DNA of 32,000 nt from the NCBI RefSeq assembly GCF_000022265.1, contig NC_011979.1, forward strand, positions 3,690,001 through 3,722,000, in the 5' to 3' direction. Below the pieces are notes generated by a model. It saw nothing but the letters and a program-made list of their open reading frames with translations, made no database searches and was not told the DNA's origin. A program made the translations under genes and the position numbers. This DNA comes from Geotalea daltonii FRC-32. Its GTDB lineage: Bacteria > Desulfobacterota > Desulfuromonadia > Geobacterales > Geobacteraceae. Positions 143-26,310 of the stretch are shown here, in pieces; positions within the stretch are counted from its first letter, which is position 1; each line of letters opens with the position of its first letter.

Positions 143-1612
143 ATGGCCACAACTGATAGTACAAGTCATCGTCTCACTGAAGAAGTTCTCGGATTTATTC
201 AAGCAGGAGTTGACGCCGAGCTTTCGGATGCCCAATTCAATGACTATTCAATGCAACTGTTCGCATTGCAGTACCAGAACAACGCCATCTTCAGGGAATT
301 CTGCGACGCCAAGAAAGTCAAACCGGGTGATATCAGTCGCTGGCAGGATGTCCCTTTGGTCTACAATGATGTCTTCAAGACACATCTGGTTGCATCTTTT
401 CCTTTGGAACAGTCGGTGATGGCATGTCTGACCGGCGGCACAACCAGCCTCACCCAGCGCGGTCGCATTTTCAGGGATGAGGACGGGAAACGCCTCGTCT
501 TTGGTGCAAACAGGATGATGACCGAATCATACCTGTTCCCCGATTTTGAGGAGGGAAAACGTTGCCGCATCCTCATCCTTGCTCCTAGCCCTGAACTGGC
601 ACCATCCATGGGAATGGCCATCGGCATGGATCAGACAAGACAGGCGTTCGGCACTCCGGACAGCATGTTCCTGCTTGGAAAAACCGGCATTGACGTGAAA
701 AACCTGCTTACAGCACTACACGAAGCTGAGTCAAGCGGGATACCTGTGGCACTGATCGGCGCAACCGCTGCATATGTCTATTTCTTCCAGGCCTGCCGCC
801 GGAAAAAAATGAAATTCAAGCTTCCCCCAGGAAGCCGAGTCTGCGACGGCGGCGGTTATCGTGGGCGCTTCGGCGTAGTTACCCGCGATGATTACTATGA
901 AATGGTCAGAGAGATACTTGACGTTCCGGATACCCACTGTGTAAACGTTCTCGGTGAAGCCGAAACCGCCACCAATTTGTTTGACGATGCATTACGCCGC
1001 CATATGAAAGGTCTTTCGCCCCGCAAACGGGTTCGTCCTGTACCTCCATGGTCACGGGTGCTGGCCATGAATATCGACGATCTCAGCCCTCTGCCCGATG
1101 GCGAAGTCGGCTTGCTCGCCCATTGGGACCTGGCCAATGTACCGACTGTACTGGCCGTCATAACCGACAACCTCGGTTACACAACTGATAACGGTACCGG
1201 CTGTGAAATGGTGGGGCGTGCCAAAATTGAGAACGGCAAGGTATCACCGCTGCCTGATGAGGACCGGACCATGGGTCCCATGGGCGACAATGCCGTTTTC
1301 AGGATGTTGGAAGCGTACACCAACTTTTCCATTGACCTGAAGATGCGCTTTGCCAAAAGCCCCAAGGTCAAACCGAGCATCAGGGAAGAGGTCGAAGCAC
1401 GTCCCGGTTCTCTGCCGTCATGTCCCCAGGTCGTCGATGAGATCCTGGTTTCTCAGGCGAGCAAAGAAGCCGCAGAACTGCGCGACGCAGCCCTTGGGGC
1501 ATTCAAGGATCAAACCGAGCGGCCGCTTGACTGGTACAAGGCCGAAGAGAAAAAACAGGAACTGAAGGATCACCCTGCGGGACTGCAATCGGAAAAACTG
1601 CCAAAAAAATAA
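143..1612 (+). CDS. LuxE-like acyl-protein synthetase / ANL-superfamily adenylate-forming enzyme with a charged C-terminal tail
   Basis: 489-aa ORF with AGGAG 8 nt upstream of the ATG. The N-terminus 'LFALQYQNNAIFREFC...WQDVPLVYNDVFK' resembles the LuxE-family N-terminal signature. 'LTGGTTS' is an adenylation P-loop-like motif. The last ~100 aa are Lys/Glu-rich low complexity. Confidence 0.5.
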   Translation: MATTDSTSHRLTEEVLGFIQAGVDAELSDAQFNDYSMQLFALQYQNNAIFREFCDAKKVKPGDISRWQDVPLVYNDVFKTHLVASFPLEQSVMACLTGGTTSLTQRGRIFRDEDGKRLVFGANRMMTESYLFPDFEEGKRCRILILAPSPELAPSMGMAIGMDQTRQAFGTPDSMFLLGKTGIDVKNLLTALHEAESSGIPVALIGATAAYVYFFQACRRKKMKFKLPPGSRVCDGGGYRGRFGVVTRDDYYEMVREILDVPDTHCVNVLGEAETATNLFDDALRRHMKGLSPRKRVRPVPPWSRVLAMNIDDLSPLPDGEVGLLAHWDLANVPTVLAVITDNLGYTTDNGTGCEMVGRAKIENGKVSPLPDEDRTMGPMGDNAVFRMLEAYTNFSIDLKMRFAKSPKVKPSIREEVEARPGSLPSCPQVVDEILVSQASKEAAELRDAALGAFKDQTERPLDWYKAEEKKQELKDHPAGLQSEKLPKK

Positions 1613-1626
1613 TTACCAATAAAAAT

Positions 1627-1653
1627 GGCGGTCAGGAAAACTTCCCGACCGCC
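1627..1653. terminator. Bidirectional intrinsic terminator hairpin between convergent genes
   Basis: GGCGGTC...GACCGCC stem. On the minus strand it is followed by ATTTTTATT, and on the plus strand by a weaker T-rich tract. It sits between the stop codons at 1612 and 1678. Confidence 0.6.
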
Positions 1654-1677
1654 AGATTATCTTTTAGCTGATTACGC

Positions 1678-3015
1678 TTATCCCATAATCTGTTTATCCC
1701 GGACAGCCCGCTGCTCTTCCTTCCATTTTTCATAGGCGATCTTCATCCCTTTGCGCACCGGCAGCTGATTCATCAGCGACAGGATATGGGCAAACGGAAA
1801 GCCAGACAGCGGCACATGACGCATATGGCTAAAGATCCTCCAGTTACTGAGAATTTCCAGAGATGTTTCGTAAAATGCCTCTTCTCGTGCTGCCGGTGTC
1901 ATTCGCGGATCGGGGTGATCAAAAAGTGCATATGCCCCGGTGTAATACTCCCAGCCAAGATCCTTATAGATGTATGGTTCATACTGACGACGCAACTCGG
2001 TACCCGGGTATGGCACAAGCAGCGAAGGATGCATGCTGACTCCCAGACGGTCCGCCAACTCCACGGAACGCTTGAAATCATCCAAGGAATCATTTCTCCC
2101 CCCCAGCATGTAAAACAATGAGACATCAATGCCATGGTCACGGAGGGTTCTGACGGCTCGTTCGCGGTCGACGCCAATTTTACCGTTTGCTTTGTAGGCG
2201 GTCAGAGAATCATCAGAAATGGCATCCCATCCCACCCAAACAGTCAGCATTCCGCTTTCCCGGGCGGCGTTCAGCATGCGTGAACCGCTGGGTGTCAATA
2301 CCGGGCGCAGGCTGCCGAAGCCCATCCACTTCTTGCCGCTCCCTCTAAGGGCAGTGAACATATCGATTGCACGCTGCTCGAATCCTTCCCACCAGATATT
2401 TTCATCTCCATTGATGTACATCTTCTCCGGAACGGCACAGACGTCACGCACCACATCCTCGATGGGGCGAAAGCGGATGCTTGCTCCATAAAAGGGTTTG
2501 ACTGAGCAGAAGGTGCAGTTATACGGGCAACCGCGGGAAGTATTGATGACACGGAACTGGTGCCCTCCGGAAAGTTTCCCGAAAAAGGGGGTTGGGAGAT
2601 CGTTGAGGGGGAGTTGCTCCCCCCGGTAGAACGGTTGCAGCCGGCCGGCCTTGAAGTCGCGCAGGACCTGCGGCCACGTTGATTCCGCCTCGCCGATGAC
2701 GACCGCATCCCCGTGGGATTTGGCCTCTTCCGGCATGGAGGAGGCATGGATACCGCCGAATACGACTTTTATGCCCTTAGCCCGAAGGGCATCGGCGATC
2801 ATATATCCCGGCACGGCTGTCGGGGTCAGGATGCTGATGGTTGCCAGGTCGCATTGGATTTTGTCGATGGCCTCGGGGGTGGCACTGGCGCTTATCAGCT
2901 CGATCTCGATATTGGGATCTTCCCTGTGCGTTAATGCCGCAAGATACTCAAGGATCGGCGGTGCGACCGGCGTCCAGCCGAAGGGAAGCGGAGGGAAGAT
3001 AATGCAGACTTTCAT
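1678..3015 (-). CDS. B12-binding domain radical SAM protein
   Basis: 445-aa ORF. The N-terminal Rossmann-like cobalamin-binding region is 'MKVCIIFPP...VVFGGIHAS'. The canonical radical SAM motif 'SRGCPYNCTFCS' (CX3CX2C) is present. GAAAGGTG lies upstream of the ATG. Confidence 0.85.
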   Translation of the reverse strand: MKVCIIFPPLPFGWTPVAPPILEYLAALTHREDPNIEIELISASATPEAIDKIQCDLATISILTPTAVPGYMIADALRAKGIKVVFGGIHASSMPEEAKSHGDAVVIGEAESTWPQVLRDFKAGRLQPFYRGEQLPLNDLPTPFFGKLSGGHQFRVINTSRGCPYNCTFCSVKPFYGASIRFRPIEDVVRDVCAVPEKMYINGDENIWWEGFEQRAIDMFTALRGSGKKWMGFGSLRPVLTPSGSRMLNAARESGMLTVWVGWDAISDDSLTAYKANGKIGVDRERAVRTLRDHGIDVSLFYMLGGRNDSLDDFKRSVELADRLGVSMHPSLLVPYPGTELRRQYEPYIYKDLGWEYYTGAYALFDHPDPRMTPAAREEAFYETSLEILSNWRIFSHMRHVPLSGFPFAHILSLMNQLPVRKGMKIAYEKWKEEQRAVRDKQIMG

Positions 3016-3058
3016 TTATAAAGCACCTTTCAAACTGCAACAACAGCGGAAACAAACA

Positions 3059-3592
3059 TCAGAGATCGAGTTTTTGGTTAGCATATATGGCATCGAGTAC
3101 CACCTTTGCATCAGCCCTGGGTGTTCGGTAAATCCTTCCGCCGCTTCGTATTTCGACGTTTGTCATCATCGCCAAACCATAGGCACCATCCGGATAGATG
3201 ACGAACTTTACTTCTATCCCTCTGGCGGTGATACCGGCGCTCCTCTTCTTGAAATCGAAAAGACCGGTGGGAATGTAGCCGACAAAGTCCACGAAGATAT
3301 TACCGTTCGCGGCCCTGGTCTCGCGCCATTCCCTCTTTTTGAAATACCCGTATTTGCCGAAAGCTTCGCCTATGGGCATTTTCGGGTATCCGGGAAGAAT
3401 GGCCTTCTGAATGACACCGGCCATATCCGTGGGACCTGCACTCGAACCGCTGGCGGTAGAGTGCGGAGATTGGTTCATGGCAGGAGTCACGCTTGGGACG
3501 ACGACACCTCGTTTTTCAAGTCCGGGCATGGCGTCAGCAGTGCCTAACAGTCCTACGATGCTGATTGCCGTAATCAATGTCATTGCGCGCAC
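3059..3592 (-). CDS. Secreted hypothetical protein (signal peptide, no recognisable domain)
   Basis: 177-aa ORF with a GTG start preceded by AAGGGG at 7 nt. The N-terminal hydrophobic segment 'MTLITAISIVGLLGTADA' looks like a signal peptide. No Cys or heme motifs. Confidence 0.55.
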   Translation of the reverse strand: MRAMTLITAISIVGLLGTADAMPGLEKRGVVVPSVTPAMNQSPHSTASGSSAGPTDMAGVIQKAILPGYPKMPIGEAFGKYGYFKKREWRETRAANGNIFVDFVGYIPTGLFDFKKRSAGITARGIEVKFVIYPDGAYGLAMMTNVEIRSGGRIYRTPRADAKVVLDAIYANQKLDL

Positions 3593-3611
3593 AGGTCAAC
3601 CCCTTTTCTTA

Positions 3612-4439
3612 CTAATTATGCTCGATGCGGAACCCGGAATGGAAGGTCTCCACACCGAAAGGGATACCCCAGTAACTTACGATCATGAAGATCAAAGCTA
3701 TCAACGCATACCAGGCAAGCCTGGTGCCTCGCCACCCAAAAGTAATGCGCAAGTGGAGATAAATCCCATAGACCAGCCATGAAACGAGCGACCAGACCTC
3801 CACCGGATCCCATCCCCAATAATTACCTTTTACCTGGTTCGACCAGAAGCAGCCTGAAATCATCATCAATCCATACATGATAAAGCCGCCAGAAACAAAG
3901 CGGTAAGACAACAGATCCAGTGCACCAAGGTCAGGCAACTTGTCATAAATCCCGCCCGATTTTCTTTCTTTCAGAAGGTACATCAGCCCTATGCCGGCAG
4001 CCACAAGTACGGAAGCAAATCCTGATGAGGCCCCTACTATGTGGACCCAAATCCACCCACTTTGCAATGCCGGGGAGAGTGACGTGGCTACTTCTTTCAT
4101 CATTGTTCCAGCCCAGCCGAGCAGTACAAAGGCCACCGGGATGACCAGCACCCCCAACGGCCGCAACCTCTTTGTGAACGCCTGAAAAGCGACAAAAATG
4201 AGGACCGCCATAAAGGTCCCAAGGGTAAGCGACTCGGAAATGTCGATAAACGGCGTGATGCCCGTTGCCGACCAGCGAAGGGCAATGGCTATGACATGGG
4301 GAATAAAACCAGCCACTGCGCTGTAGAGGCCAATGGTGAACAACTTCTCCTGTTTGGCAATCATGCCGAAGATATAACTAAAGGTACTCACGCCATACAG
4401 TGAAACAGCTGCCCAGAAAAACATCAGTGCCGGCTTCAT
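3612..4439 (-). CDS. ccsA: Cytochrome c biogenesis protein CcsA/ResC (System II heme lyase subunit)
   Basis: 275-aa polytopic membrane protein with the Trp-rich WWD-type motif 'YWGWDPVEVWSLVSWLVYGIYLH' and flanking conserved His residues. Strong SD AAGGGGGA upstream of the ATG. Confidence 0.85.
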   Translation of the reverse strand: MKPALMFFWAAVSLYGVSTFSYIFGMIAKQEKLFTIGLYSAVAGFIPHVIAIALRWSATGITPFIDISESLTLGTFMAVLIFVAFQAFTKRLRPLGVLVIPVAFVLLGWAGTMMKEVATSLSPALQSGWIWVHIVGASSGFASVLVAAGIGLMYLLKERKSGGIYDKLPDLGALDLLSYRFVSGGFIMYGLMMISGCFWSNQVKGNYWGWDPVEVWSLVSWLVYGIYLHLRITFGWRGTRLAWYALIALIFMIVSYWGIPFGVETFHSGFRIEHN

Positions 4440-4482: not shown

Positions 4483-5643
4483 TCACATCCGACTTCGCAT
4501 CATCCGCCCAATGGTTGTAATAAGCATCCCAGCCAGCCCTATCCAGAGGCTTGTCAACACTATCGGCTTGCCCGGTTCGTAACGAACGTTCATAGCCACC
4601 CAATAGCGGACCTCTTTCGGAGTAAGTCGGTAGCCAAAGGCAGAGAATGATTGCCCCACCGCAACCCTACCCTCTTTGATAATAAAGTCTCTGACTTCTT
4701 TATGGTCCTTTCCCAAAGGCATTACCACATAAGACACATCCCCGCCACCATAATTTGTGGAGGAAGGAGAGAAAGCAAGCTGCAATTCCATAAGCGGTCG
4801 CATGGGGTCCTGAGGAAACATAAACGGAGCAGGACCTTCTTTAGTGCCGGTGGTATATAGAAATGACTCGTCCTTTTGCCTTAGGCTCTGCAGAGGAAAA
4901 TGGGCTCCATATATTTCCTTGCCGGTGGAGTCGTTAAGTACCACCAGCAGTGAATATCCCTCCCGGTCCGTATAGTAAGTGAGTCCATGATGGGTCAGAT
5001 TATGGGTAATGTAGATAATGCCGTGACTCTTACGTCCGCTTTCGCCGACCTCGATCTCGTATGCAGCGCGTTTATCTTCTTTACCAACCCGGTACCCACG
5101 GTGCATTTTTATCAAGGATGCCTCACCTTTAAGGCGATCAATGGAAAAAAAACGCCCGTGCTCATACTTATCATAGCTGTTGAAATCGCCGCTGGGTAGA
5201 ATTTCCCCTTCGGTAAGTCTGATGTTTCCTCGAAAATAGAAGAGGCTGTTAAATACAATTCCGCAGAGAATAGCCACAAAGCTGATATGGAAAAGGATCA
5301 TGCCGAAGGAGATGATGGTGAGTTTTCTGTGCCAGATCCTGCCGAAAAAGCAGCAGGCCACATTTACGACAAGCAGCACCAGGATGCTGTTGAACCAGAG
5401 AGTGCTGAAGATCAATTCCCAGGCCCGTATTCCGCGGATTATCGTGACCCCGACAATACTGCATATCAAGATTGTCACAAGGAGCAGCATGGCTAATCTA
5501 GCCGATGCCAGGAAATCGTAGATCAGCCGAATTGTCTTGTGCACCGGGTGAAAGCGCGGCTGAAGAGGATAACTCTCCGGCTGTTCATCGGGACATGTCT
5601 CTGAATGAAGTTCGGTTTTATCTTGTAATTGCGACATTTCCAC
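4483..5643 (-). CDS. Cytochrome c biogenesis protein ResB/CcsB
   Basis: 386-aa ORF. Its ResB-type N-terminus is 'FLASARLAMLLLVTILICSIVGVTII...LWFNSILVLLVVNVACC'. It has a large central soluble domain and a C-terminal TM segment. It lies directly upstream of ccsA. The start is GTG at 5643 or ATG at 5637. Confidence 0.8.
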   Translation of the reverse strand: MEMSQLQDKTELHSETCPDEQPESYPLQPRFHPVHKTIRLIYDFLASARLAMLLLVTILICSIVGVTIIRGIRAWELIFSTLWFNSILVLLVVNVACCFFGRIWHRKLTIISFGMILFHISFVAILCGIVFNSLFYFRGNIRLTEGEILPSGDFNSYDKYEHGRFFSIDRLKGEASLIKMHRGYRVGKEDKRAAYEIEVGESGRKSHGIIYITHNLTHHGLTYYTDREGYSLLVVLNDSTGKEIYGAHFPLQSLRQKDESFLYTTGTKEGPAPFMFPQDPMRPLMELQLAFSPSSTNYGGGDVSYVVMPLGKDHKEVRDFIIKEGRVAVGQSFSAFGYRLTPKEVRYWVAMNVRYEPGKPIVLTSLWIGLAGMLITTIGRMMRSRM

Positions 5644-5779: not shown

Positions 5780-7072
5780 TCAGAATAGGTTATCAACCTT
5801 CCACCAGAGAGTGCGACCGACTTTGGCACCATACCCGACAGTTTTACCGTCAGGAAATACCTGAATGTCCCATACCCCATCGTAATGAGGCAGTTCTCTG
5901 ACAGTATGACCTTGCAGGTCAGCGACAACGGCAAATCGCTCCCCATCCTTACGGGTACGATATACCACATGATTTCCATTCGGAATAAATTGCGGCGTAA
6001 CAACCTTGTCAAAGGCCGGACCATTTGCACCGTTCACCACAATAAAATTCTTAGGGCCGATTGCTGCGCCATAAACGAAATTCGATCCGTTTCGGCTAAA
6101 AGAAGGGAAATTTATGGAGTCATATGTATTGCCGGTATTTTTGCCGTTTAGAAAGGAAACAACTTTCCCGCCAAGAAAGCCAGTGTGGATGGTGTTGCCT
6201 GTTGAAGAAACCACCAGCTCAAAGACAGACTGGAGATTGTCGGTCTTATGCTTTACTCCGTCGACAACCAGGAAGGTTTCCCCCCTCTGACTCGCCAGAA
6301 AGGCAAGATGTTTGCCATTTTCAGAAAGATCCAAGGCAAAGATTTGATCGTACCACTCAGTTTCAACGGGCTTGGGGGCCGAACCATCGAGATCCAGCAT
6401 TATAACGGCACTCTGGCCATTCAAGGTAGCAGAATAAGCCAGATGTGTCTGTAATTCATCAAGGTTAACAAAACTTATGGAGTCATAATTCCTGTCTGTG
6501 ACACAACTTTTAAGCTTTTCACTGCAAATATGCAGAGCACTACCCTTTTGCTCTGCGACAAAGGCTACTTTTTTGGGGGAGGAAAGGAGAAAGGTATCGG
6601 AAATTGTGCCCTTGAAGGGTTCAATCTCCTTCCCATCCGATACCATCAGGGATTGGTCGCCTTGGGTTGCCGAATATATAACACGGCCGCTCCTGCTATA
6701 GGCAAGGTGGTTAATAGTGTCGTAGCTTTTTCCTTCCTTACCGTCCACGACCACAAGTTCTTTGCCCCCCTTTCTTGCGATATAGGCACACTCTGACCCC
6801 GATGGTGAAAATGCCGGACCTCGAACATGCTCGTAAAAGATACCCATCTTGTCGTTGATAACCATCGCTTCCTTACCGTTGGACTTCACGGCATACGCAA
6901 CCTTATTACCATCATCACTGAATAAGGCGTCGTCAAACTCAGCACCTTCAGGAATGTTTGCCAGGAGCGTAGATTTGGTGTTCAAGTCAGGTGATGTGGA
7001 ATGAGAACCTTTCTTGCAAGCGGAAAAAGCGAATATAACGACAATCATAGACAGAAGTATGCGCATTCTCAT
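5780..7072 (-). CDS. Lipoprotein with repeated beta-propeller-like (TolB/PD40-like) units
   Basis: 430-aa ORF with GGAGG 5 nt upstream of the ATG. The lipobox is 'IFAFSAC'. There are about 8-9 degenerate ~40-aa units of the form 'S.dG..vAY.a...gk..vvvdGk....yd.i'. Confidence 0.6.
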   Translation of the reverse strand: MRMRILLSMIVVIFAFSACKKGSHSTSPDLNTKSTLLANIPEGAEFDDALFSDDGNKVAYAVKSNGKEAMVINDKMGIFYEHVRGPAFSPSGSECAYIARKGGKELVVVDGKEGKSYDTINHLAYSRSGRVIYSATQGDQSLMVSDGKEIEPFKGTISDTFLLSSPKKVAFVAEQKGSALHICSEKLKSCVTDRNYDSISFVNLDELQTHLAYSATLNGQSAVIMLDLDGSAPKPVETEWYDQIFALDLSENGKHLAFLASQRGETFLVVDGVKHKTDNLQSVFELVVSSTGNTIHTGFLGGKVVSFLNGKNTGNTYDSINFPSFSRNGSNFVYGAAIGPKNFIVVNGANGPAFDKVVTPQFIPNGNHVVYRTRKDGERFAVVADLQGHTVRELPHYDGVWDIQVFPDGKTVGYGAKVGRTLWWKVDNLF

Positions 7073-7130: not shown

Positions 7131-7163
7131 AAAAAAAAAAGCCCCACCCTTATGGGCGGGGCT
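7131..7163 (-). terminator. Rho-independent terminator after the giant cytochrome gene
   Basis: The minus strand reads GCCCCGCCC-ATAA-GGGTGGGGC followed by T10, 26 nt after the stop codon at 7189. Confidence 0.85.
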
Positions 7164-7188: not shown

Positions 7189-10100
7189 CTAATAGGTACC
7201 GCCAACCGTATAGGTCTTGCCGGACTGGTTGGAACATGCGCCTCCGGTATAGGAAACCATGGAACATTGCGGACTGTAGGTACTTGAGCCGATCATCCGC
7301 GGTTGGTGGTTGCTCAGATTCATCCTGTTACGGATAAAGGCATACGGTCTGGTGTTCACCTGAGCAGGGGTGCCTGCCGATCCAAGCCACCGGACAGTTG
7401 CGGTAGCGCCTGTGGTCGGCAAGGCGTTGGTTCCGTGGAAGTTATCCGACCTTGCCGGGCGGGTGCCTGTGTTGGCATCTGCATGACAGTAATGACAGTT
7501 AAGGAAGGTAGTGCCGTTCATATCACCCGAAGTTGTAGTAAAGGCCGAACCGGTTGCGCCGGTATTGTGGCCCGGATAAGTATAGGTGAGGTGACATGAT
7601 GAGCAATGTGTCGGGCTGGACACATAAATAGTACCATTGGTCGTGGCGTTGCCGCCGCGAATCAGAACGTTGGCGTCGCCATGGGCTGAAATGGTGCGGA
7701 GTGTCTTCATTCCGGTAGTCTGGCCGGTGTTGTGACAATCGAAGCAACTCATAATTACACCAGAAGACTTTGTCCCAGAGGTACCGCGGGTGCCGGTCGG
7801 TTTGTAGGGATCGGCAAGTCGGGCAGCGGTTGGGTAGTCAGCCGAGCGGGCGGCACGTACCGGGTGCTTGGATGAGTTGGTCGGGTCGAACTGGCTGAAG
7901 GCATTAAGCACAGTATATCCTCCGCCAAAAGGAGCAGTGGGAGTTGGAGATGTTCCAGCTCTTGCCGTGGTGTTCGCAGCACCTCCAGAATCATGGCAGG
8001 TGAGGCAGAATTTCTGGGTAATTACACTGGCAACTGTATTGTTGATGGCCGAAGACCGGGTTCCTGAAGCAAATGATGTTGAGAAACGCTGGAAGGTGAA
8101 TGCCGCATTGTTATTATCGGTAATGGCAACCTCACCACTGCCATCGGGGTTCCGGAGATCGATATTTCCATCAGCGTGATATTTGGAGGTTTTCTGGGTG
8201 GTGAAGTTGCCCTCCAGGTGGCAGACGATACAGTCAGCATCTGCGACTGCGGTACGAGTTGATTTCTTGTGCCCGTAAGTCTTGCCGAACTCGGCCGTTA
8301 CAGCAGCAAGTTGCTTCCCTGGCCGGCCTTTCGTACGGGTGATGGCCGCTGCATGGCAATCGGTACACTTAAGGGTATTGAGCCCCCAGGTGGTGGTAAT
8401 GTGACAAGCAAGGGTACAGGTGGAGTAGCCGGAATTTGCCGGATGCTTGGCAACGTTGGCCGGGTAGCCCTGGTTCGTAACATCGATGTCTGTGTCGCCA
8501 TGGGCTGCGTTGGCATAGCTCTGGGTTACTGTATTGGAGACGGCGCCGGTATGGCACTCATCACAGATATAACGGCCATAGTTCATGTGAGCCGAATGAC
8601 TGCCGGTGTTGGGACCCTTCTGGTTGGAAGGTGAGGAGTAGGTAATGAAAGCGCCGGCTACGTTGTGGCATGCGCCACAACCTGCGCCCGTGCTGCCCCA
8701 GGCTGGTGTCGAGCCAGCGCCTGAGCCGTAGGGGCTTCCATGACAGGTTGTGCTGCAAGTGCGGTTACTGTAACCATCGTTGGCTGGGTGCTTGGTAACG
8801 TTAGTCTGGTAGCCGACGTTTACTATGTCGATATCACCATCGGTGTGACCATTGGCAACTGACGGTGCGGCGGTTGCCGAAGTCCCTGTCGCGTGGCAGT
8901 TGGTACATGCATAGGCGCTGTGAGTACCATGGCCGCCGGTTGCCGGGCCACTTGCGCCGATAGGATAGGCGGAGTGGCAGGCGGAGCAACCATTGTTGGT
9001 GGTGCCCCATTGTGGCGTGAGTGATGATCCCGTGGTGCTGTAGACATTGCCATGGCAGCTTGCGCTAGAACATTTTGAGGTTGCGCTGCTCCAGCCAAGT
9101 GCCGAGTCAAGATTTACGACAGCAGGGTTGGTGGTGGTGTTACCACTATTTCCGGGCCCGTGATCGGCATTGCCGCCGGAGCCGCCGATATTGTGGCAAG
9201 TGGTACAACCGTTGGTAGCGGCCGGGACGTGGACGGAGTGATTGCCTGCTACATCCGGGTGAACGGTGCCGTTAGGTTCGCCGGTACCGCCTGCAGCACC
9301 ATGGCAGCTGCCGCAGCCGATGTTGGCGGTCAGAGGATCCCCCTTGGTGTGACAGGACTGACAGTTAGGTGGCGTGCCGCCAGTCGCTGGGTAGGTACCA
9401 GCAGGTGTACTGTTGGTATGGCAGCCTATGCCGCTGGAACAATCGGTGTGGCCGGCACTGGTAGCATAAAGTGGAACAGTGTGGCCATTGCCCTTGAAGC
9501 CTTTGTTGTGGGGGTGGCACTTGATGCATTCCGCCCGGTTGTAATGGGTATTGGAAGTCACGGATTTACCGACTGACTTGACGGAAGAGCTATATTGATG
9601 GAAATTTGTCTGGTGGTGGCAGACTTCGCAGATATTGGTCGAACGGTTCAGGGTCGACCGCTGATCGTTACCGAAGAGATCCATGGCATTCGTCACGGTG
9701 GAGGTCATCCGTGAGAAGGTAACGCTTCTTGTGCCTGTTGGGGTGGCAATCTGCTGAGCAACCTGCTTGACGTTATTGGTACCGGCGGTGTGGCACCAGG
9801 TGCAGTCTTTGCCGGCGCCCCAATTGCCGTAGCCTTTGGCGTTGCTTGGATCAAGATTCGCTGCACTGTGCATCAGGGGATTTACGTAGGCAGTAGTGGA
9901 AGTAGACCCGGTCACTATGCCGTTTGCCGGGGTGCGGCCATCAGCGTCAGTGAATGTCGCCTGGAAATAGTAGATAGTTGATTCAGCAAGGTTATTGATG
10001 GTAGCAACATAGGAGCTGCCGGATTTTGCGGAGGTTGCTGTGTTAGGATAGGTCCCATTGACAGTACCCCACTTGATGACACAGCTGTTATTGTTGTTAT

Positions 10101-11772
10101 CGTCACCTGTAAAAGGTGCAGTCACCGTGATCGAGTTGCTGGTAACGCCCGAATAGCTAAGCGCTCCTGCAGTGGTGCCGTTAACAGCAGCGGCACGAGT
10201 GACGGTAACCGTGTAGGTCTTGGTTGTAGTGCCGTCTTGGGCAGTGACGACCGTGGTAATGGTGTTTGACCCGACCACAAGGGCTATGGGAGCGGATGCC
10301 GTACCGCTGGCAACGGTGGTGCCGTTCACTTTAACTGTTGCAGTCGCGTCCTCAACCGTGGGAGTCACTGTAATTGAGGCAACGGGGTTAGCGACCGAGG
10401 CCGTGTAGGATATGGTTCCGCTGGCAAAAGCAGGGCTCAAGGTACCGGAAGACAGCACCAGGTTGCTCAGATTTGCATTTGTTGAAGCAGCGGCCGCACG
10501 TGTAACGACAACGGTGTATGTCTTGGTGGTTGTGCCATCTTGTGCAGTAACGACAGTTGTTATGGTGTTTGCGCCCACACTCAGTGCAATCGGGCCGGAA
10601 GCCGTACCACTGTTGACTGCAGTGCCGTTTACGGTGGTGGTGGCGGTGGTATCAGCCTCGGTGGGTGTTACTGTAATGGAGGAAACGGAGTTTGCTACCG
10701 AGGCGGTGTATGAGGTAGTTGCACTGGAGAAAGCAGGTGACAGCGTACCGCTGGACAGAACAAGATTACTCAGATCTGCATTTGAGGAGCCTGCTCGGGT
10801 AACAACCACTGTGTAGGTTTTGGTCGTAACGCCATCTTGGGCTGTTACGACAGTTGTGATCGTATTGGAGCCGACTGCAAGGGAAATGGGGCCGGAAGCA
10901 GTACCACTGTTGACAGCAACTCCATTAACAGTTGTCGTAGCCGTCGTGTCCGCCTCTGTCGGCGTAACGGTAATAGACGAGACGGAATTGGCGACAGAAG
11001 CGGTATAGGAGGTGGTCGTGCTACTGAAGGTAGGCGTCAATGTCCCAGACGAGAGCACTAAATTGCTAAGGTTGGCATTATTGGAAGCCGCGACAACCTC
11101 ATTAACAATCAAAACACCAGAAGTTCCTGTTCCGGCCGTATCAGCTGTAGATCCCCAGTATACCCGCTTAGCAGTTGATGTACCCGCTGTCGCTCGAACA
11201 CGGATGCCGAGCTTGGCACCGACAGGAACAGTCGCAGATTGTCCTGTCAATGACAGAGTGACTGTTGAATCTCCTACCGATGCCACCGCCGATGTCACTT
11301 CAGTGCCGGTGAAATCTGTTTTTGTCCCGCTCGAAGTCACATAAAATAACCTGACACCGGCAGTCCATCCACCAGACCCACTGTCGCGAAGCCTTACTTT
11401 AAAGGAGGTGCCTGTTACCGTGGTGGCAACAGCATATGCAGAATTAAAATACGCCTCCACAATAGTGCCTGCACCGGAAACAGTATGGACAGCACGCTGA
11501 CTGGCGCAAGCAAAAGCGGATGTATCCATTAGGGTTGTAACAGCCCCGGTATTATTTGTTCCGCATGCACTCGAGTCGGTCAAAACTCCGGTTGCGACCG
11601 TGGTCCCTGAATTGACCTGAAGATTATAGGTCACTGAAGCGGCCATGATTTCATGTGGCTTATACCACCCCTCATACATGAACACCGACAGGGTCAAAGT
11701 AAACAGCACCGTCAATGCCACCTTTGCCCACAGATTCAATCCTCGGATCTTCTTAGCGATAACCTTACCCAT
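7189..11772 (-). CDS. Giant membrane-anchored multiheme c-type cytochrome (~20 heme motifs) fused to three cadherin-like beta-sandwich repeats and an FN3-like segment
   Basis: 1527-aa ORF with SD AAGGGG upstream. The N-terminal basic plus hydrophobic anchor spans aa 1-33. Three ~100-aa repeats of the form '[38 protein letters not shown]...[10 protein letters not shown]' span aa 232-526. There are 16 CXXCH motifs between aa 657 and 1430, plus CX5CH (aa 778), CX4CH (aa 901), CX3CH (aa 1006) and CX3CH (aa 1119). Confidence 0.9.
10195..11079 (-). repeat. Three tandem ~300-bp coding repeats (cadherin-like domains) inside the cytochrome gene
   Basis: The protein repeat period is 99-101 aa (L235, L334, L435). 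The same periodicity shows in the antisense shadow ORFs at 10220, 10412 and 10820, which have near-identical translations. Confidence 0.85.
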
Positions 11773-12322
11773 AATCTCTACCCCTTAGTCAAGTAGTAAT
11801 CAAAATATATTAAAAGAAGCCTTTTCATCCGCGCTTGTCTTTAAATAATAAAATTCTAGGAGCTAATGAATGCAAAAACAGTACCCATAATCTAGACAGT
11901 AACCCTCCCATTAAAGTACAGCACCAAGCAAGGTCTGAAAACGGCTGGTTTAAAACAATAATTTTCTGGCTATCACGAGGTTTGCGTGGATATTTTTTTA
12001 TACGAATATGTGCCCCCGAGTAAATTCAACAGGTTATCCCAATGCCGTATCCACTCCCCCCCTTTCAATTTTGCCGGCAGCGCAAGATCCATTACGTTGT
12101 AAAACGGACGCCGATAGTCATTTGACCATTGATGCAATAGCGAGGAACCAAAGTCGAAATTGCCCGGAACCTTATATACATTATTAGCAATTGTCAAGAT
12201 ACATGTCTTACTGATCTTTTACGCCGCAGTTCAAAAGCATGACCCCGAGCCCAAAATTGTTGTTTAGCGTTGTTTAGTCTGTTAGATTACCTCCATATCC
12301 ATTTTGATTGGAGACCCACTAT

Positions 12323-13246
12323 ATGGTCCACGGAATCTTCAGCAGGCATTATTTATTTCTGCTATTCATCCTGCTAATACTTGCGATGTCTTCGATGGCA
12401 GGCTGCCGGGAGCGGAGCAAGAGGCCGATGATGCGCATCGGCTATATGAATTGCAATAACGAGCAGGAGACAATGGCACGTTTTCAGCCCCTTACCCGTT
12501 ATCTCTCGGAAAAGCTCAATGTTGATTTCGTGGCCGTCCCGGTTGATACCCATGATTTCGAAAAGCGATTCCGCGATGGCGAATTTGCCTTCACCCATAC
12601 GAACTCCCTACTCTATATAATTCTCCGTGAGAACTACCAACTGCAAATTATTGCCTCCGACAAGCGCGGCAATTTCGGCTCCCGTACCGGCGGCGCCATT
12701 ATCGCCCGCAAAGGGAGCGGCATAAACAAGCTGTCCGACATCCGCGGCAAAAGGATGGTCTTTGGGCCGATGCTGGCCCCAACCGGCTACCTTGCCGAGT
12801 ACGACCTGATGCTGCGGTCAGGCATCGACCCGGAGAAAGATCTCGCCTTTTACGCCATCCCTTCAGGTTCATACAAACACGAAAAACTGGTTTACGGGGT
12901 GCTTTTCGGGCAGTATGACGTTGGTGCTGCCCCTCTGCTGGATCTTGAGGTTATGGCACGGGAAGGGAAAATATCCCCCGATGATTTTGTCATTATTGGC
13001 CAGACACCCCTCATCCCATACTGCACTTTCGGAGCAGCAACCAAGACCGATCCTGAGCTTGTCGCAAGGTTCCGCCAAGCGCTACTCGAACTGAAACCGA
13101 CCGATACCGTGGAAATCAACGGCGAGCAGGTCAAGGTGCTGAAGGCTGCCTGGGCCGATGGATATGAGCAGCTGCTTGACAAGGACTATGACACGATTCG
13201 CGACATGGCCCGCCGTGTGAATATGCCCCCCTATCAAAAATACTGA
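12323..13246 (+). CDS. PhnD-family periplasmic substrate-binding protein (phosphonate/phosphite-type fold), lipoprotein-like N-terminus
   Basis: PhnD-like pattern: 'RIGYM...LTRYLSEKLNVDF...' and 'GGAIIARKGSGINKLSDIRGKRMVFGPMLAPTGYL...YDVGAAP'. ATG at 12323 is preferred over TTG at 12308 because GGAG at 12309-12312 then sits ~10 nt upstream. 'SSMAGC' is a lipobox-like signal. Confidence 0.7.
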   Translation: MVHGIFSRHYLFLLFILLILAMSSMAGCRERSKRPMMRIGYMNCNNEQETMARFQPLTRYLSEKLNVDFVAVPVDTHDFEKRFRDGEFAFTHTNSLLYIILRENYQLQIIASDKRGNFGSRTGGAIIARKGSGINKLSDIRGKRMVFGPMLAPTGYLAEYDLMLRSGIDPEKDLAFYAIPSGSYKHEKLVYGVLFGQYDVGAAPLLDLEVMAREGKISPDDFVIIGQTPLIPYCTFGAATKTDPELVARFRQALLELKPTDTVEINGEQVKVLKAAWADGYEQLLDKDYDTIRDMARRVNMPPYQKY

Positions 13247-13798: not shown

Positions 13799-14863
13799 AT
13801 GAATCTGAAAGACCGGCATTTCTGGATCATTGTTGTTACCGGTGCTTTGATGGGGACTTTCGGAGTGCTGCTCTCCGTCTGGGGTAATCCCGAAAACTCC
13901 GGCATCTGTGTTTCATGCTTTATCGAGAACAGTGTGGGGGCATTGGGTTTCCACGACAACTCACGCATGCAGTACCTGCGTCCTGAACTGGTCGGTTTTG
14001 TCTTGGGCGCCATGTTGAGCGCCGCCGCTTTCAGGGAGTTTCGTGCCCATGGGGGCAACAATCCGCTGCCACGGTTGATTGCCGGGATATTCCTGATAAT
14101 CGGTTGCGCCGTCTTTATAGGCTGCCCTATCAAGCTGTTTCTCCGTTTGACAGCCGGGGACCTCACTGCTTTGGCTGGAGTTGCCGGCCTGGTTGCAGGT
14201 GTCTGGATCGGTCTCAAGGGATTGGCCAATGGTGTAGAATTGGGGAGTTCCGGAAAGCAAACCGGCAGCAGCGGTCTGCTTATCCCTGCTTTTTTTTGCA
14301 TCTTGCTGCTGTTTATGATATTCCCGCCGGCATTCATCCTCTCTTCAGGCACAGGAAGCGCAGCACAATATGCACCAATGGCCGTTTCCCTTGGCGTCGG
14401 TCTGTTGCTCGGAGCCTTTGCCCAGCGAAGCAGATTCTGCATCACCGGTAGTGTCCGCGACGCTATTCTAATGGGTTTCAGGTCCCATATGCCATGGGGA
14501 TTCTTGGCCTTCGTTGCTGCAGGAACTGTCACCAGCATCAGCTCCGGCAGATTTCATCCCGGTATGTTCGGACAACCGGGAGCCCATCTGGACCATCTAT
14601 GGAGTTTTCTCGGAATGCTCTTGGCAGGCTGGATATCGGTGCTGATCGGCGGCTGCCCGTTCCGACAGCTGATAAAATCAGGTGAAGGAGACGCAGATGC
14701 GGGTCTGGTGGTCGTTGGAATGCTTATCGGCGGTGCCGTCGTACAATCATGGACACTGGCAGGAACCGCCGCCGGTGTTCCTTTTTACGGTAAAGTGGCA
14801 GTTCTCGCCGGCTTCATATTTATTCTGCTGACATGCTTGCTGAGCCGCGAGCGTCAAGACTGA
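13799..14863 (+). CDS. yedE: YedE/YeeE-family sulfur/selenium-compound transporter
   Basis: 354-aa polytopic protein. The N-terminal signature is 'WGNPENSGICVSCF', and the second-half conserved Cys lies in 'SRFCITGS'. The ATG is 2 nt after the upstream stop. Confidence 0.75.
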   Translation: MNLKDRHFWIIVVTGALMGTFGVLLSVWGNPENSGICVSCFIENSVGALGFHDNSRMQYLRPELVGFVLGAMLSAAAFREFRAHGGNNPLPRLIAGIFLIIGCAVFIGCPIKLFLRLTAGDLTALAGVAGLVAGVWIGLKGLANGVELGSSGKQTGSSGLLIPAFFCILLLFMIFPPAFILSSGTGSAAQYAPMAVSLGVGLLLGAFAQRSRFCITGSVRDAILMGFRSHMPWGFLAFVAAGTVTSISSGRFHPGMFGQPGAHLDHLWSFLGMLLAGWISVLIGGCPFRQLIKSGEGDADAGLVVVGMLIGGAVVQSWTLAGTAAGVPFYGKVAVLAGFIFILLTCLLSRERQD

Positions 14864-14874: not shown

Positions 14875-15762
14875 TTAACGGCAACAGGGATCAGGTTCAT
14901 CCCAGGAACCGCCGGCAAAATATCCCCTGCCACGGCACCCGCCAAAGCAACCCGACAGCTCTAAGCACCCGTCGCACCCTTTGGGCGTCTTCATCAAGTT
15001 CTCCCGCAAGCTTCTTTTTGCCATCGAATGCACAATTGATGACAGTGTCATCTCCTTGAGATTCCCCAAGGCCACGGGAAGAGACGGACAGGGGTAAACA
15101 TCACCGCTGGCCGTGATGCTAAGCATGGTATTGGCTGCCTGGCAACTCCCTTCCGGAAAATGAAGGGTCGGGAAGAACACCCGCCACAAAAAAGGGTCGT
15201 GGATAACAACCTGCATTTTGTCAGGCTTGACCACCTCTTTTATTCCATCGGAGAGTTTCTGCCGCTGTTGCCTGTCCAAGGCAAAATAGCCTCCACCACA
15301 GGAGAGCCGTTGCATGGGCAATACCAGTGATAAACCATGATTGGCGCAGAACGAGTATATCTCCGGCAGCTGATGGTAATTATCAGCTGCAACGGCAAAA
15401 GAGATCCCTGGTACCGGTACGCCGGCAGTTCGGAAATCATGGCGATTCACTCGGGCAAGGTCTGCTGATTCTTCAATAGCCACATAGAGATTTCTAAGGC
15501 GGTAATGGCAGATCTGATCCAGAAGTGCAGGAGTAATGGTCGCCAGGGGAATGGTCAAAGAAAGGGCAATCTGAACCGGGGAAAATAATTCCAGTAATGG
15601 CAGGTAAATGGCGCCGGGAGTGGCCTTCGTAGCGGTGAGATCGAGACTGAGTATCTTCAGCACTATGATCTGCTCACCGACACTGAGACAATCATTATCA
15701 GCAGCGTCGGCAGGCAAATCCCAGTAAATCCTGATGGGAGTTTTCAGCTCACTGAAATTCAT
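14875..15762 (-). CDS. SPASM-domain protein lacking the radical SAM CX3CX2C cluster (GeoRSP-type SPASM partner)
   Basis: A full SPASM cysteine pattern is present: 'C-X17-C' (ending 'GDVYPC') followed by 'CDGCLELSGCFGGC' (CX2CX5CX3C) and a C-terminal 'DPCC'. There is no CX3CX2C anywhere after Met27. The start at 15762 forms an ATGA overlap with the upstream stop. The longer 321-aa ORF-track form overlaps the upstream gene out of frame. Confidence 0.75.
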   Translation of the reverse strand: MNFSELKTPIRIYWDLPADAADNDCLSVGEQIIVLKILSLDLTATKATPGAIYLPLLELFSPVQIALSLTIPLATITPALLDQICHYRLRNLYVAIEESADLARVNRHDFRTAGVPVPGISFAVAADNYHQLPEIYSFCANHGLSLVLPMQRLSCGGGYFALDRQQRQKLSDGIKEVVKPDKMQVVIHDPFLWRVFFPTLHFPEGSCQAANTMLSITASGDVYPCPSLPVALGNLKEMTLSSIVHSMAKRSLRENLMKTPKGCDGCLELSGCFGGCRGRGYFAGGSWDEPDPCCR

Positions 15763-16757
15763 GGCTGCCAGCAGTGGGGATCGGGACTGTTGAAATCGCC
15801 GGTCAACGCAAGGGCACGGGCACTGCAGCCTCCAAGGCATTCATTGTAGTCGCTGCAGCCGACACATTTACCTGTCGCCACTTTGTTGCGCAGCTTTTCC
15901 AGAATCGATGAGCTCTTCCATAGCTCCCGAAGGTCGTCGGCAAGGATATTGCCGATGACGATGGGTATGAAACCGCAGGGGGTAATGTCGCCATTGGACT
16001 TTATGTTCAGGGACAGCTTGCCGCAGACACTCCCCTTGACCATGTTGTTGGTGTCATGCATTCCCAATGAGGCGATTATCGGATCATCCAGGGAGATGTC
16101 CAGCTTACGCCCCCGCTGTTTTTCCATTATCGCCTCTGCGTAAAATGACTGCCATTCCTCAGGTGTCAGGTCCAGATCATCCCTGTTGGAATAACCGAGG
16201 CCCGAACATTTGAAATTGTGGAAGTTGAGCTGCTCCACATGGAGTTTTTCCGCCAAATCTATGAGCGGAGCAACGTCACGGTGGTTCAACTTGCAGATAA
16301 CTGTGGAGATGGAAGTCTTTATTCCTGCCTCCTGCAAGTATGCCAAAGCATTTACGGCACGCCCGTGGCTGCCGGACACACCACGGAAATGGTCATGGAT
16401 GGCAGGAACGTGGCTGTCGATACTGATGCCCACCTTGCTGAACCCGGCCTCTTTCAATTCCAGGGCTTTCTTGCGGTCGATGAGGTAACCATTGCTGTTC
16501 ATGGATACTCGCATGCCGCTTTGGGCAGCACAAGAAGCGATCGTCGCCAAGTCCTGACGCAGCAGCGGCTCGCCACCGCCGAAATTGACCGACATGACAC
16601 CAGCCGTGGCAACTTTCTCAAGACACTGGCATAACATACTGCAGTCTATTTCTTTCATGGCATCATTGCGGCTATAGCAGTGGCGGCAGGCGAAGTTGCA
16701 GTTATTGTTGACAGCCCAGTTTATCGTAAGCGGTGCCTTAAGCTGAATTTCACCCAT
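15759..16757 (-). CDS. Radical SAM/SPASM-domain maturase
   Basis: 'CNFACRHC' is a CX3CX2C motif, followed by 'GGGEPLL'. The SPASM pattern is 'C-X15-C' (ending 'GDITPC') followed by 'CVGCSDYNECLGGC' (CX2CX5CX3C) and 'DPHC'. The start at 16757 (MGEIQL) overlaps the PqqD-like stop as ATGGGTGA. Confidence 0.85.
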   Translation of the reverse strand: MGEIQLKAPLTINWAVNNNCNFACRHCYSRNDAMKEIDCSMLCQCLEKVATAGVMSVNFGGGEPLLRQDLATIASCAAQSGMRVSMNSNGYLIDRKKALELKEAGFSKVGISIDSHVPAIHDHFRGVSGSHGRAVNALAYLQEAGIKTSISTVICKLNHRDVAPLIDLAEKLHVEQLNFHNFKCSGLGYSNRDDLDLTPEEWQSFYAEAIMEKQRGRKLDISLDDPIIASLGMHDTNNMVKGSVCGKLSLNIKSNGDITPCGFIPIVIGNILADDLRELWKSSSILEKLRNKVATGKCVGCSDYNECLGGCSARALALTGDFNSPDPHCWQP

Positions 16758-17106
16758 AGAAGATAAACCCTTTCTGTTCCAGATCCTGCAAAAACGAATG
16801 CACATCCTGAGACAGTACTGCTCGTTCTACCTCAAAGTCAGCCAGTAAGGAATCGATGATCTCCTCGACGGTCCTGCCGTCGCAGATCTTCCATATTTCG
16901 GTGCCCATCAGGTTCAGAGTAATCATGATGCCGTCCGAGAAGAGCAGCGAGGTGCCCACTTCGGTCACGTCATTCCCCTTCTCCAGCCCTGCGCTCGCTT
17001 CCAAAAGAGAGTCCTCTTCCTCGCGCCACATCACATCAGGGTTTCTAAATACCTTTTTCAACAACACGCCCTCCTTTATGGAATGTTGTATCAGCGACCA
17101 ATGCAT
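16750..17106 (-). CDS. PqqD-family protein (RiPP-recognition-element-like chaperone)
   Basis: 'ITLNLMGTEIWKICDGRTVEEIIDSLLADFEV...VLSQDVHSFLQDLEQKGFI' fits the PqqD/RRE pattern. The start is uncertain. ATG 17106 gives 118 aa. The 151-aa form starting at 17205 would overlap the ResB-like gene. Confidence 0.7.
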   Translation of the reverse strand: MHWSLIQHSIKEGVLLKKVFRNPDVMWREEEDSLLEASAGLEKGNDVTEVGTSLLFSDGIMITLNLMGTEIWKICDGRTVEEIIDSLLADFEVERAVLSQDVHSFLQDLEQKGFIFYG

Positions 17107-17131
17107 GAAAGGCAAAGGGCCGACAGGGAAT

Positions 17132-18061
17132 TTATCTTTGTGCAAACCTTCGCCAAAAAGCAAGAACTGCCCCAAGACACATGATTGCGAAGCCGCAGAA
17201 AACAACAGGCCGGCCCGGATCTTTCACTATCTGAATGCCTGCGAAGGAGCGGCCATTTCCGTCGGTTCCAGTCTGTGTATGATAGAAACAGAGTCCCTGC
17301 CAGGAAAACGGTGCGTTGATTTCCGATGTCCCCGAGACAGGGGGCTTGTCATCACTGGATAGCTGAAGATCGACCCACATCCTCTTGAGCTGGGGATTTT
17401 TATAGGAGACAAGCTTGAAAGCATAAGGGAAATCGAGAGGCAGCGTGCTGTTACCGGAGGTGTCGGCTGTGCCGACGATCCCGTCCCCTTTGTGAACCAC
17501 AAGTACCAGCCTGAGATTTTTGGGCTCAAAGTCCGTGACCGAGACACGATAACCGGGCAGTTCAAAACTTTCACCGGTGGCAAGGGTGAACAGGCCGTAT
17601 TTTTCGTTACCCTGCAGGACACCGACGCGGACCGGCACCGGGTAATACTGGCGATTTATCTGCTTTACCCATAGCCGCATGTGGAATGGGGCATCCCTCT
17701 TCAGGTCCCAGCGAAAAGCCTCGTCTACAAAGGTGCCTTCATAAACGTTCACCGTGGCCACATAACCAAAGGAGGTGATCACACAGCCCAAAAGAGTAAC
17801 CAGAACTCCTCCATGAAGAACGAGGGTCGATCCGGCTAACGAGCGCCACCTTTTCATGCTGCAGCATATAAGGTTCAATGCCATCAGGGCCAGCAGACTG
17901 ACAAACAGTGGGCTTGAGTAAATCGCCCGTGATTCGGTGAAGGTTCCTGGTATTGCAACGATGGTCAATATACCGAAAAGGGCAATTGCCAGTTCCGTTG
18001 AGGAGAGACCATTGATAATTCGTGATTTCAGACCCGGTGGCAGCAAGACAGAACCTTTCAT
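17132..18061 (-). CDS. ResB-like cytochrome c biogenesis family protein (short, orphan paralogue)
   Basis: The ResB-type N-terminus is 'LSSTELAIALFGILTIVAIPGTF...SSPLFVSLLALMALNLICCS'. There is a second TM segment, a ~200-aa soluble region and a C-terminal TM. No CcsA partner is adjacent. The start is ATG 18061 or TTG 18067. Confidence 0.7.
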   Translation of the reverse strand: MKGSVLLPPGLKSRIINGLSSTELAIALFGILTIVAIPGTFTESRAIYSSPLFVSLLALMALNLICCSMKRWRSLAGSTLVLHGGVLVTLLGCVITSFGYVATVNVYEGTFVDEAFRWDLKRDAPFHMRLWVKQINRQYYPVPVRVGVLQGNEKYGLFTLATGESFELPGYRVSVTDFEPKNLRLVLVVHKGDGIVGTADTSGNSTLPLDFPYAFKLVSYKNPQLKRMWVDLQLSSDDKPPVSGTSEINAPFSWQGLCFYHTQTGTDGNGRSFAGIQIVKDPGRPVVFCGFAIMCLGAVLAFWRRFAQR

Positions 18062-18080
18062 CCGCAAAGCAGACTGTGCA

Positions 18081-18659: not shown

Positions 18660-18680
18660 AAAACATCCTCCTCGCATCAG

Positions 18681-22029: not shown

Positions 22030-22106
22030 TGGTCGGTGCGACTGGATTCGAACCAGCGACCACTAGACCCCCAGTCTAGTGCGCTACCAGGCTGCGCTAC
22101 GCACCG
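22030..22106 (-). tRNA. tRNA-Pro (anticodon GGG)
   Basis: Hand-folded cloverleaf: acceptor CGGTGCG/CGCACCG, anticodon arm CTAGA-CTGGGGG-TCTAG, T-arm GCTGG-TTCGAAT-CCAGT, encoded CCA. It starts 5 nt after the merR-family stop codon. Confidence 0.85.
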
Positions 22107-22111
22107 ATATG

Positions 22112-22453: not shown

Positions 22454-22473
22454 TGAAGCATCCCTGAAGAGAA

Positions 22474-22752: not shown

Positions 22753-22844
22753 AAACCCCTCAACTAAATCAGTAATTCGGTGGGCAGCCAAGTTCGACAG
22801 CGCGTTGGTTTATATCACAGGGGGAATCCATAATCAACCCATTT

Positions 22845-25250: not shown

Positions 25251-25279
25251 ATTCTCACACTTTAAGATTTATTGAGAAA

Positions 25280-26296: not shown

Positions 26297-26310
26297 AGCA
26301 TTACCTTGTA

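Follow-up and report, generated by a model that had tools for sequence, protein, structure and literature searches.

Expanded CX3-5CH motifs as candidate haem sites of a predicted 20-haem cytochrome in Geotalea daltonii

A 32,000-nucleotide stretch of the Geotalea daltonii FRC-32 genome (contig NC_011979.1, positions 3,690,001 to 3,722,000 of the forward strand; below, the window) encodes on its minus strand a multihaem c-type cytochrome of 1527 amino acids (7189-11772), in which 16 canonical CXXCH motifs are accompanied by four expanded motifs of the types CX3CH, CX4CH, and CX5CH. The protein is a new member of a known, curated, biochemically uncharacterised family, and each of its expanded motifs lies at the centre of a repeated unit that we interpret as a triheme module. 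Comparison with more than 1700 related modules makes haem attachment at each of the four expanded motifs probable, so that the protein would be a 20-haem cytochrome of extracellular electron transfer.

Expanded Motifs and Family Membership

The motifs were located by a script in the translated open reading frame (ORF), which returned the four expanded motifs of an initial annotation at identical positions, each with a CXXCH motif downstream. In particular, CSSGIGCH (CX5CH, residue 778, 9418-9441) is followed by a canonical motif at residue 804, CSSASCH (CX4CH, residue 901, 9052-9072) by one at residue 929, CSTTCH (CX3CH, residue 1006, 8740-8757) by one at residue 1032, and CTLACH (CX3CH, residue 1119, 8401-8418) by one at residue 1136. 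With the 16 CXXCH motifs they make 20 candidate haem sites, and the choice between 20 and 16 haems, already posed by that annotation, is indeed the right question.

The 20 motifs contain 40 of the 45 cysteines of the protein, and none of the remaining five (C70, C89, C564, C1503, and C1513) precedes a histidine. Shuffling of the 890-residue haem region yielded on average 0.25 CX3-5CH motifs, and at least four of them in 5 of 50,000 shuffles. With 16 canonical motifs among 20, the succession of an expanded and then a canonical motif carries no significance in this cytochrome taken alone. In the family as a whole it is a rule, which holds for 573 of the 576 expanded motifs in 88 homologues and for 1496 of 1519 in 133 further representatives. 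In the same two sets, C(2-6)CH motifs hold 96.8% of 4708 and 97.8% of 11,880 cysteines, respectively, and the presumed disulfide cysteines of the family, an N-terminal and a C-terminal pair, never precede histidine. The spacer residues of the expanded motifs are small, mostly Ser, Thr, Ala, and Asn, and also Gly.

The TIGRFAMs family named in the initial annotation proved to be TIGR01904 (CxxxxCH/CxxCH domain c-type cytochrome). In a hidden Markov model (HMM) search, the whole protein scores 35.5 bits with NCBIfam TIGR01904.2 (cut-off 27), and the pairs starting at residues 901 and 1006, taken alone, score 38.8 and 29.8 bits. The 'paired CXXCH' family TIGR01905, suggested as a further check, was ruled out by a best score of 17.3 bits against a cut-off of 25.2. 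The strict family pattern, CX4CH and then CXXCH within about 20-30 residues, occurs only at residues 901/929, the spacers of the other three expanded motifs being 3 or 5 residues long; the domain is repeated within the polypeptide, with three near-full-length matches and one divergent module. The closest homologue is a Geotalea toluenoxydans protein with 69% identity (P0002), and the homologues belong to Geobacteraceae and Desulfuromonadaceae, many of them being already annotated as 'CxxxxCH/CxxCH domain' proteins.

A Predicted Triheme Module with a Variable Central Site

The repeat unit is a predicted triheme module with the layout CXXCH, about 45 residues, CX(3-6)CH, about 26 residues, CXXCH, and is present here in four copies on the minus strand. 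Module A (9349-9528), a divergent copy with the same layout, consists of CIKCH at residue 749, the CX5CH motif, and CQSCH at residue 804. Module B (8974-9207) has the canonical family form, with CTTCH at residue 856, the CX4CH motif, and CSACH at residue 929. In modules C (8665-8907) and D (8353-8565), the CX3CH motifs are framed by CTNCH at residue 956 and CGACH at residue 1032, and by CDECH at residue 1070 and CTDCH at residue 1136, respectively. A profile built from 90 of the 484 modules that we extracted from the 88 homologues detects three near-full-length copies in the cytochrome, at residues 839-941 (module B, spacer pattern 2,4,2), 942-1046, and 1053-1149; modules C and D score 94.4 and 71.9 bits. 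Residues 940-1050 and 1055-1160, which cover modules C and D, are 43% identical (E = 1e-19). The duplication described in the initial annotation is thus real and was understated, the modules being four rather than two. A tandem-repeat search found no repeat at the DNA level over the cytochrome gene. Among the 90 module instances, 57 match Pfam PF09698 and 76 match Cytochrome_C7. A single module alone scores below the cut-offs of the class III (c3/c7) Pfam models.

A census of 1753 module instances from 221 family proteins demonstrated that the spacing of the central site varies, CX4CH being found in 1538 instances (88%), CX3CH in 144 (8%), CXXCH in 13 (0.7%), CX6CH in 12, and CX5CH in six (0.3%); only 20 instances lack any C(2-6)CH motif at this site. 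In the alignment of 90 modules, the Cys, Cys, and His of the central site do not vary, and orthologous columns switch between CXXCH, CX3CH, CX4CH, and CX5CH with these three residues fixed. In the column of residue 778, close relatives have CX5CH, P0015 and P0069 have CX4CH, and P0040 has CXXCH; at least 15 homologues retain the CX5CH site 'GHTGC.SGIGCH'. At residue 901 all aligned homologues have CX4CH. At residue 1006, CX3CH is seen only here and in the nearest relative P0002, with CX4CH elsewhere and CXXCH in P0015, and at residue 1119 CX3CH is found in most orthologues and CX4CH in P0009 and P0069. The conserved CX5CH site, the recent change from CX4CH to CX3CH at residue 1006, and the family-wide figures for spacer tolerance are mildly new.

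The distribution of histidines is consistent with this layout. Each module carries four conserved histidines outside the haem motifs, in the patterns G.H..H, H.DG.ID, and KH.A, a number sufficient for its three haems. The whole haem region has 27 non-motif histidines, 19 to 21 of which are conserved, and this number fits 20 bis-His haems better than 16.

Domain Layout and Proposed Haem Chain

The 1527-residue protein starts with a signal peptide and an N-terminal beta domain. Three cadherin-like domains (Pfam Cadherin-like, 211.6 bits) follow, still in the N-terminal half, and then the haem region at residues 640-1500 and a C-terminal end with a cysteine pair and a terminal GGxY. A hydrophobic N-terminal signal sequence with an Ala-X-Ala-like site, as read by eye, is shared with the homologues P0005, P0010, and P0018, and the cytochrome is predicted to be exported to the compartment of haem attachment. 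Several cytochrome models of Pfam match the C-terminal half above their cut-offs, namely Cytochrome_C7 (59.5 bits, cut-off 24.8), Cytochrom_c3_2 (28.8 and 25), and Cytochrom_CIII (23.8 and 22.9). In addition, the MtrC/MtrF domain II/IV model PF22113 matches with 45.9 bits (cut-off 30), best over residues 1254-1433, in a C-terminal region with five CXXCH motifs at residues 1181, 1256, 1343, 1390, and 1426 (7483-8232, minus strand). All close homologues share at the C-terminus (residues 1503-1527, window positions 7189-7300, minus strand) a histidine-free Cys-x(7-10)-Cys loop and a GGxY end, which could be a disulfide combined with a sorting or outer-membrane signal.

We infer that each expanded motif binds haem covalently via two thioether bonds, the following histidine serving as the proximal ligand, and that the protein carries 20 haems, most or all of them with bis-His ligation. 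The expanded motif would be the central site of a triheme module of about 100 residues, the extra one to three residues between its cysteines presumably bulging as a short loop. The four modules in a row, the flanking haems, and the MtrC-like five-haem end would then constitute one continuous haem chain, which might carry electrons out of the cell, the protein likely being a cell-surface or extracellular cytochrome. Maturation would proceed in the periplasm by System II, probably with participation of the neighbouring propeller, ResB-like, and CcsA-like genes.

Genomic Context of the Cytochrome Gene

Three genes downstream of the cytochrome on the minus strand are of interest for its maturation. 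The first (5780-7072) encodes a 430-residue lipoprotein-like beta-propeller of the TolB/PD40-like type, with partial matches to the NCBIfam models TmcD and TolB. The second (4483-5643) encodes a short ResB/CcsB-like membrane protein of 386 residues (Pfam ResB PF05140, 40.1 bits, cut-off 24.6); its N-terminal transmembrane region aligns to the CcsBA structure 7S9Y of Helicobacter hepaticus, and its transmembrane H119, invariant in seven orthologues and paralogues, falls on a transmembrane histidine of the CcsB half, thus probably being TM-His1. The third (3612-4439) encodes a CcsA/ResC-like protein of 275 residues (Pfam Cytochrom_C_asm PF01578, 110.8 bits, cut-off 29.9). Its WWD domain is intact, with 'GNYWGWDPVEVW' present, and its H133, H229, and H267 correspond in the alignment to H761, H858, and H897 of the same structure. 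The functional roles of these histidines we take to be those described by Frawley and Kranz in 2009. Such roles are consistent with PMC6299221. The CcsA-like protein scores 166.8 bits with the housekeeping CcsB equivalog model TIGR03144, below its cut-off of 187.6, and is thus a divergent paralogue.

Further downstream, Pfam and NCBIfam scans and synteny identified orf177, encoding a protein of 177 residues (3059-3592, minus strand), and Pfam and NCBIfam scans a B12-binding radical SAM protein (1678-3015, minus strand) and a convergent gene for a LuxE-like acyl-protein synthetase (143-1612, plus strand). A consensus scan revealed a terminator-like hairpin with a 10-bp stem, eight G-C pairs, and a T run (7140-7163, minus strand), 26 bases past the stop codon of the cytochrome gene, and a second strong terminator-like hairpin after the radical SAM gene (1626-1654, minus strand). 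Together they suggest two transcription units, one with the cytochrome gene alone and the other extending from the propeller gene through the radical SAM gene.

The order of cytochrome(s), propeller, ResB-like gene, CcsA-like gene, orf177, and radical SAM gene recurs down to 29% cytochrome identity, in metagenome and genome loci L001, L004, L007, L009, L012, L017, L018, L028, L030, L037, L044, and L051. The shorter order of cytochrome, propeller, and ResB-like gene is kept in most loci with enough flanking sequence: the propeller gene almost always lies between the other two, and in nearly all cases the ResB-like gene is preceded by a propeller gene and a family cytochrome, most of these cytochromes having expanded motifs. 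In L023 the cytochrome is directly upstream of the ResB-like gene, and no propeller was detected there. Loci L019/L020 were considered as a counter-example with a ResB-like gene and no cytochrome, and were rejected as no clear exception, since the propeller gene is displaced to the locus edge by an opposite-strand insertion of about 7 kb.

Between taxa the CcsA-like gene is about 80% identical, and it forms a block with orf177 and the genes for the radical SAM and LuxE-like proteins. This block (143-4439) is far better conserved than the cytochrome, with about 80% identity across Geobacteraceae and Desulfuromonadaceae against about 43%. In three loci of metagenome-assembled genomes (L005, L006, and L008) the block is found among glycosyltransferase, methyltransferase, and carbamoyltransferase genes together with a second CcsA paralogue, and neither ResB nor a cytochrome is found near it; the block may be unconnected with cytochromes. 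The relatives usually encode the cytochrome within a tandem array of two to five paralogues, often with an NHL/cadherin-like protein upstream (L001, L002, L003, and L054); the window has a single copy, with cadherin-like domains fused onto the same chain.

The gene set of the window corresponds to 'gene cluster 3' of Aklujkar et al. 2009 (GSU2880-2899, Gmet_0571-0601; PMC2700814), and its neighbour genes match GSU2893 and GSU2888-2891 in Table S5 of that paper.

A Possible Dedicated Haem Lyase for Expanded Motifs

By analogy with Wolinella NrfI, which serves CXXCK, and CcsA1, which serves CX15CH, the ResB-like/CcsA-like pair and the beta-propeller could be a dedicated synthase required specifically for the CX3-6CH sites. 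The idea was voiced previously as a hypothesis: in the proposal of Aklujkar et al. 2009, the substrates of each ResB/ResC pair in Geobacter may be the cytochromes encoded close to it (PMC2700814). In agreement with it, the pair lies directly downstream of the cytochrome and keeps every residue checked for System II function, the CcsA-like protein is a divergent paralogue, and the ResB-like orthologues adjoin a propeller and an expanded-motif cytochrome in most loci with enough upstream sequence (L001, L002, L007, L009, L012, L017, L018, L030, L035, L037, L038, L044, L047, L049, and L051).

We nevertheless consider such a requirement unlikely. CX3CH and CX4CH are small deviations, present in cytochrome c3 and in hydrazine dehydrogenase (HDH); we met no report of a dedicated lyase for either protein, though none was searched for. 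Moreover, CXXCH sites outnumber expanded sites threefold in these cytochromes, and synteny therefore cannot separate a machine that serves a giant substrate from one that serves an expanded motif. The CcsA-like gene is linked more tightly to orf177 and the B12 radical SAM and LuxE-like genes than to the cytochrome, as demonstrated by the three loci mentioned above that have the block and no nearby ResB or cytochrome. Conversely, no CcsA gene was found within 10 kb of the ResB-like gene in L002, L023, and L049, and at least one family cytochrome stands alone (L056). A still more specific version sees the trio of propeller, ResB-like, and CcsA-like proteins as specialised System II machinery, needed for haem loading at the central CX3-6CH site and tolerating two to six spacer residues; it seems to us somewhat less likely again. 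If it were true, small-expansion motifs would gain their first dedicated lyase, and the list of natural haem-attachment motifs would be extended by CX5CH and CX6CH.

Occupancy of the Expanded Motifs

Returning to the reading with all 20 sites occupied, we consider the observations that weigh against it. The TIGR01904 scores of the pairs starting at residues 778 and 1119, taken alone, are 12.7 and 14.9 bits, both below the cut-off, and Pfam PF09698 is not reported for the whole cytochrome even at E values up to 1, nor for module C alone. Structure prediction was unusable: AlphaFold2 yielded a predicted local distance difference test (pLDDT) score of 35 for the 890-residue haem region with a 25-sequence alignment, and 54 for one 107-residue module with the 90 module instances. 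A Foldseek search of the module model against the PDB gave only a meaningless DnaJ match, and no solved structure is detectable by sequence for the cytochrome. A PDB sequence search with the haem region found no match, the family profile gave only motif-driven matches, and the module profile gave a marginal match to cytochrome c554 (E = 0.012); with AlphaFold2 and Foldseek failing, the resemblance to cytochromes c7 and c3 rests on weak HMM matches only. In the searched literature, CX5CH is without precedent, and no haem-occupancy measurement or haem count was found for any TIGR01904-family member. Finally, the terminator-like hairpin separates the cytochrome gene from the genes downstream.

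Precedents for the shorter expansions do exist. A passage of PMC11492766 lists CX3CH and CX4CH as described haem-binding motifs, crediting two crystal-structure papers on cytochrome c3 (refs 6 and 7 therein), and CX4CH binds haem 3 of HDH of an anammox bacterium (PMC6469936), System II being predicted in anammox bacteria by comparative genomics (PMC4222556). The earlier reservation that haem attachment at expanded motifs has rarely been demonstrated therefore does not apply to CX3CH and CX4CH; it stands for the TIGR01904 family, for which we found no solved relative, and for CX5CH, of which we found no mention in the literature searched.

It is in this setting that a 16-haem protein has to be considered, with the expanded motifs being haem-free, either decayed CXXCH motifs or structural disulfide or metal sites. 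In its favour, no occupancy measurement was found for the family, and caution with CX5CH is fair given the missing precedent. However, decay would not preserve Cys, Cys, and His at more than 1700 central sites, 88% of them CX4CH, and the sites revert to CXXCH in some orthologues. The conserved non-motif histidines number about 20, not 16, and the cysteines that presumably do form disulfides, the N- and C-terminal pairs, never precede histidine. These observations make a 16-haem protein quite improbable. Sequencing or assembly errors in true CX4CH sites, which the prevalence of CX4CH in the family (88%, and most homologues at residue 1006) might bring to mind, can practically be dismissed as the origin of the CX3CH and CX5CH spacings, as every change is in frame, the independent G. 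toluenoxydans sequence P0002 agrees with this protein in both CX3CH sites and in CX5CH, the family contains CX3CH 144 times, and at least 15 homologues have the CX5CH site.

Comparison with Known Systems

The closest known counterparts are the Geobacter TIGR01904/PF09698 cytochromes, for example the large ones of G. sulfurreducens and G. metallireducens in gene cluster 3 (GSU2880-2899, Gmet_0571-0601), which share with the window protein the repeated pairing of expanded motif and CXXCH, an HMM score above the cut-off, and the affiliation with Geobacteraceae. The neighbours are also the same, namely ResB-like, ResC/HemX-like, acyl-protein synthetase, conserved hypothetical, and radical SAM genes (PMC2700814 Table S5). 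Unlike these cytochromes, the window protein has three N-terminal cadherin-like domains, combines one canonical CX4CH with two CX3CH and one CX5CH, and has only four modules, whereas up to 44 matched module stretches per protein are found elsewhere.

Similarity to the tetrahaem cytochromes c3 and triheme cytochromes c7 consists in dense predicted haem packing with little secondary structure, and, for c3, in the described CX3CH and CX4CH motifs. The module matches Cytochrome_C7 and Cytochrom_CIII weakly, and this similarity is marginal, with no PDB relative detectable; in contrast to c3 and c7, the expanded motif in the window modules is always the middle of three sites. With the MtrC/OmcA decahaem cytochromes the protein shares a five-haem C-terminal region, and extracellular electron transfer is presumed for both; only this region matches, and no decahaem family model scores above its cut-off.

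Wolinella NrfI and CcsA1 (the latter for CX15CH of MccA) offer a parallel in that a CcsA-family paralogue is encoded beside a cytochrome with a non-standard motif. Nevertheless, the motifs of MccA and NrfA are far more deviant than the CX3-5CH motifs of this protein; the latter retain the histidine, and their spacers are only 1 to 3 residues longer than normal. The system in the window is also split into ResB-like and CcsA-like proteins and supplemented with a beta-propeller, and the CcsA-like gene is not strictly linked to the cytochrome.

Other Features of the Window

The remainder of the window includes a complete GeoRSP cassette (14875-17205, minus strand) with a SPASM protein (TIGR04304, 534.8 bits), a radical SAM/SPASM protein (TIGR04303, 690.2 bits), and a PqqD-family chaperone (TIGR04302, 190 bits). 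Just upstream of it are four ORFs (17132-21856, minus strand): a second ResB-like ORF (17132-18067), which the Pfam ResB model matches with its C-terminal piece only and which has no adjoining CcsA partner, and ORFs for an OpuAC-like protein, a CarboxypepD_reg protein, and an 826-residue NosD/beta-helix protein. On the plus strand, a YedE-family putative selenium transporter (13799-14863; TIGR04112, 391 bits) adjoins a gene for a phosphonate-binding-like protein (12308-13246) and a 180-residue ORF. A housekeeping block (22030-29685, minus strand) comprises tRNA-Pro(GGG), pheT, pheS, rplT, thrS, and tRNA-Val(GAC), and rplT is accompanied by the Deltaproteobacteria L20 leader RF03126 (26730-26790, 73.7 bits).

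Implications for Haem Counting

The module profile matches 2160 representative clusters, some of which have more than 100 predicted haems; P0109, P0122, and P0179 have 151, 126, and 108 C(2-6)CH motifs in 5264, 4309, and 4091 residues, respectively. We found no solved structure or measured haem count for any module-containing protein. Haem counts of Geobacter members have been published as ranges, for instance 27-34 for omcN (PMC2700814 Table S5); the table does not explain this, but doubt about the status of the expanded motifs may have contributed. The cytochrome of the window is comparatively small and contains CX3CH, CX4CH, and CX5CH versions of one site in one chain, and is therefore a convenient substrate for the questions of how tolerant System II is to spacer length and whether the ResB-like and CcsA-like proteins are needed. 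Since many proteins are built from the triheme module, correct counting of their haems matters for genome surveys of extracellular electron transfer.

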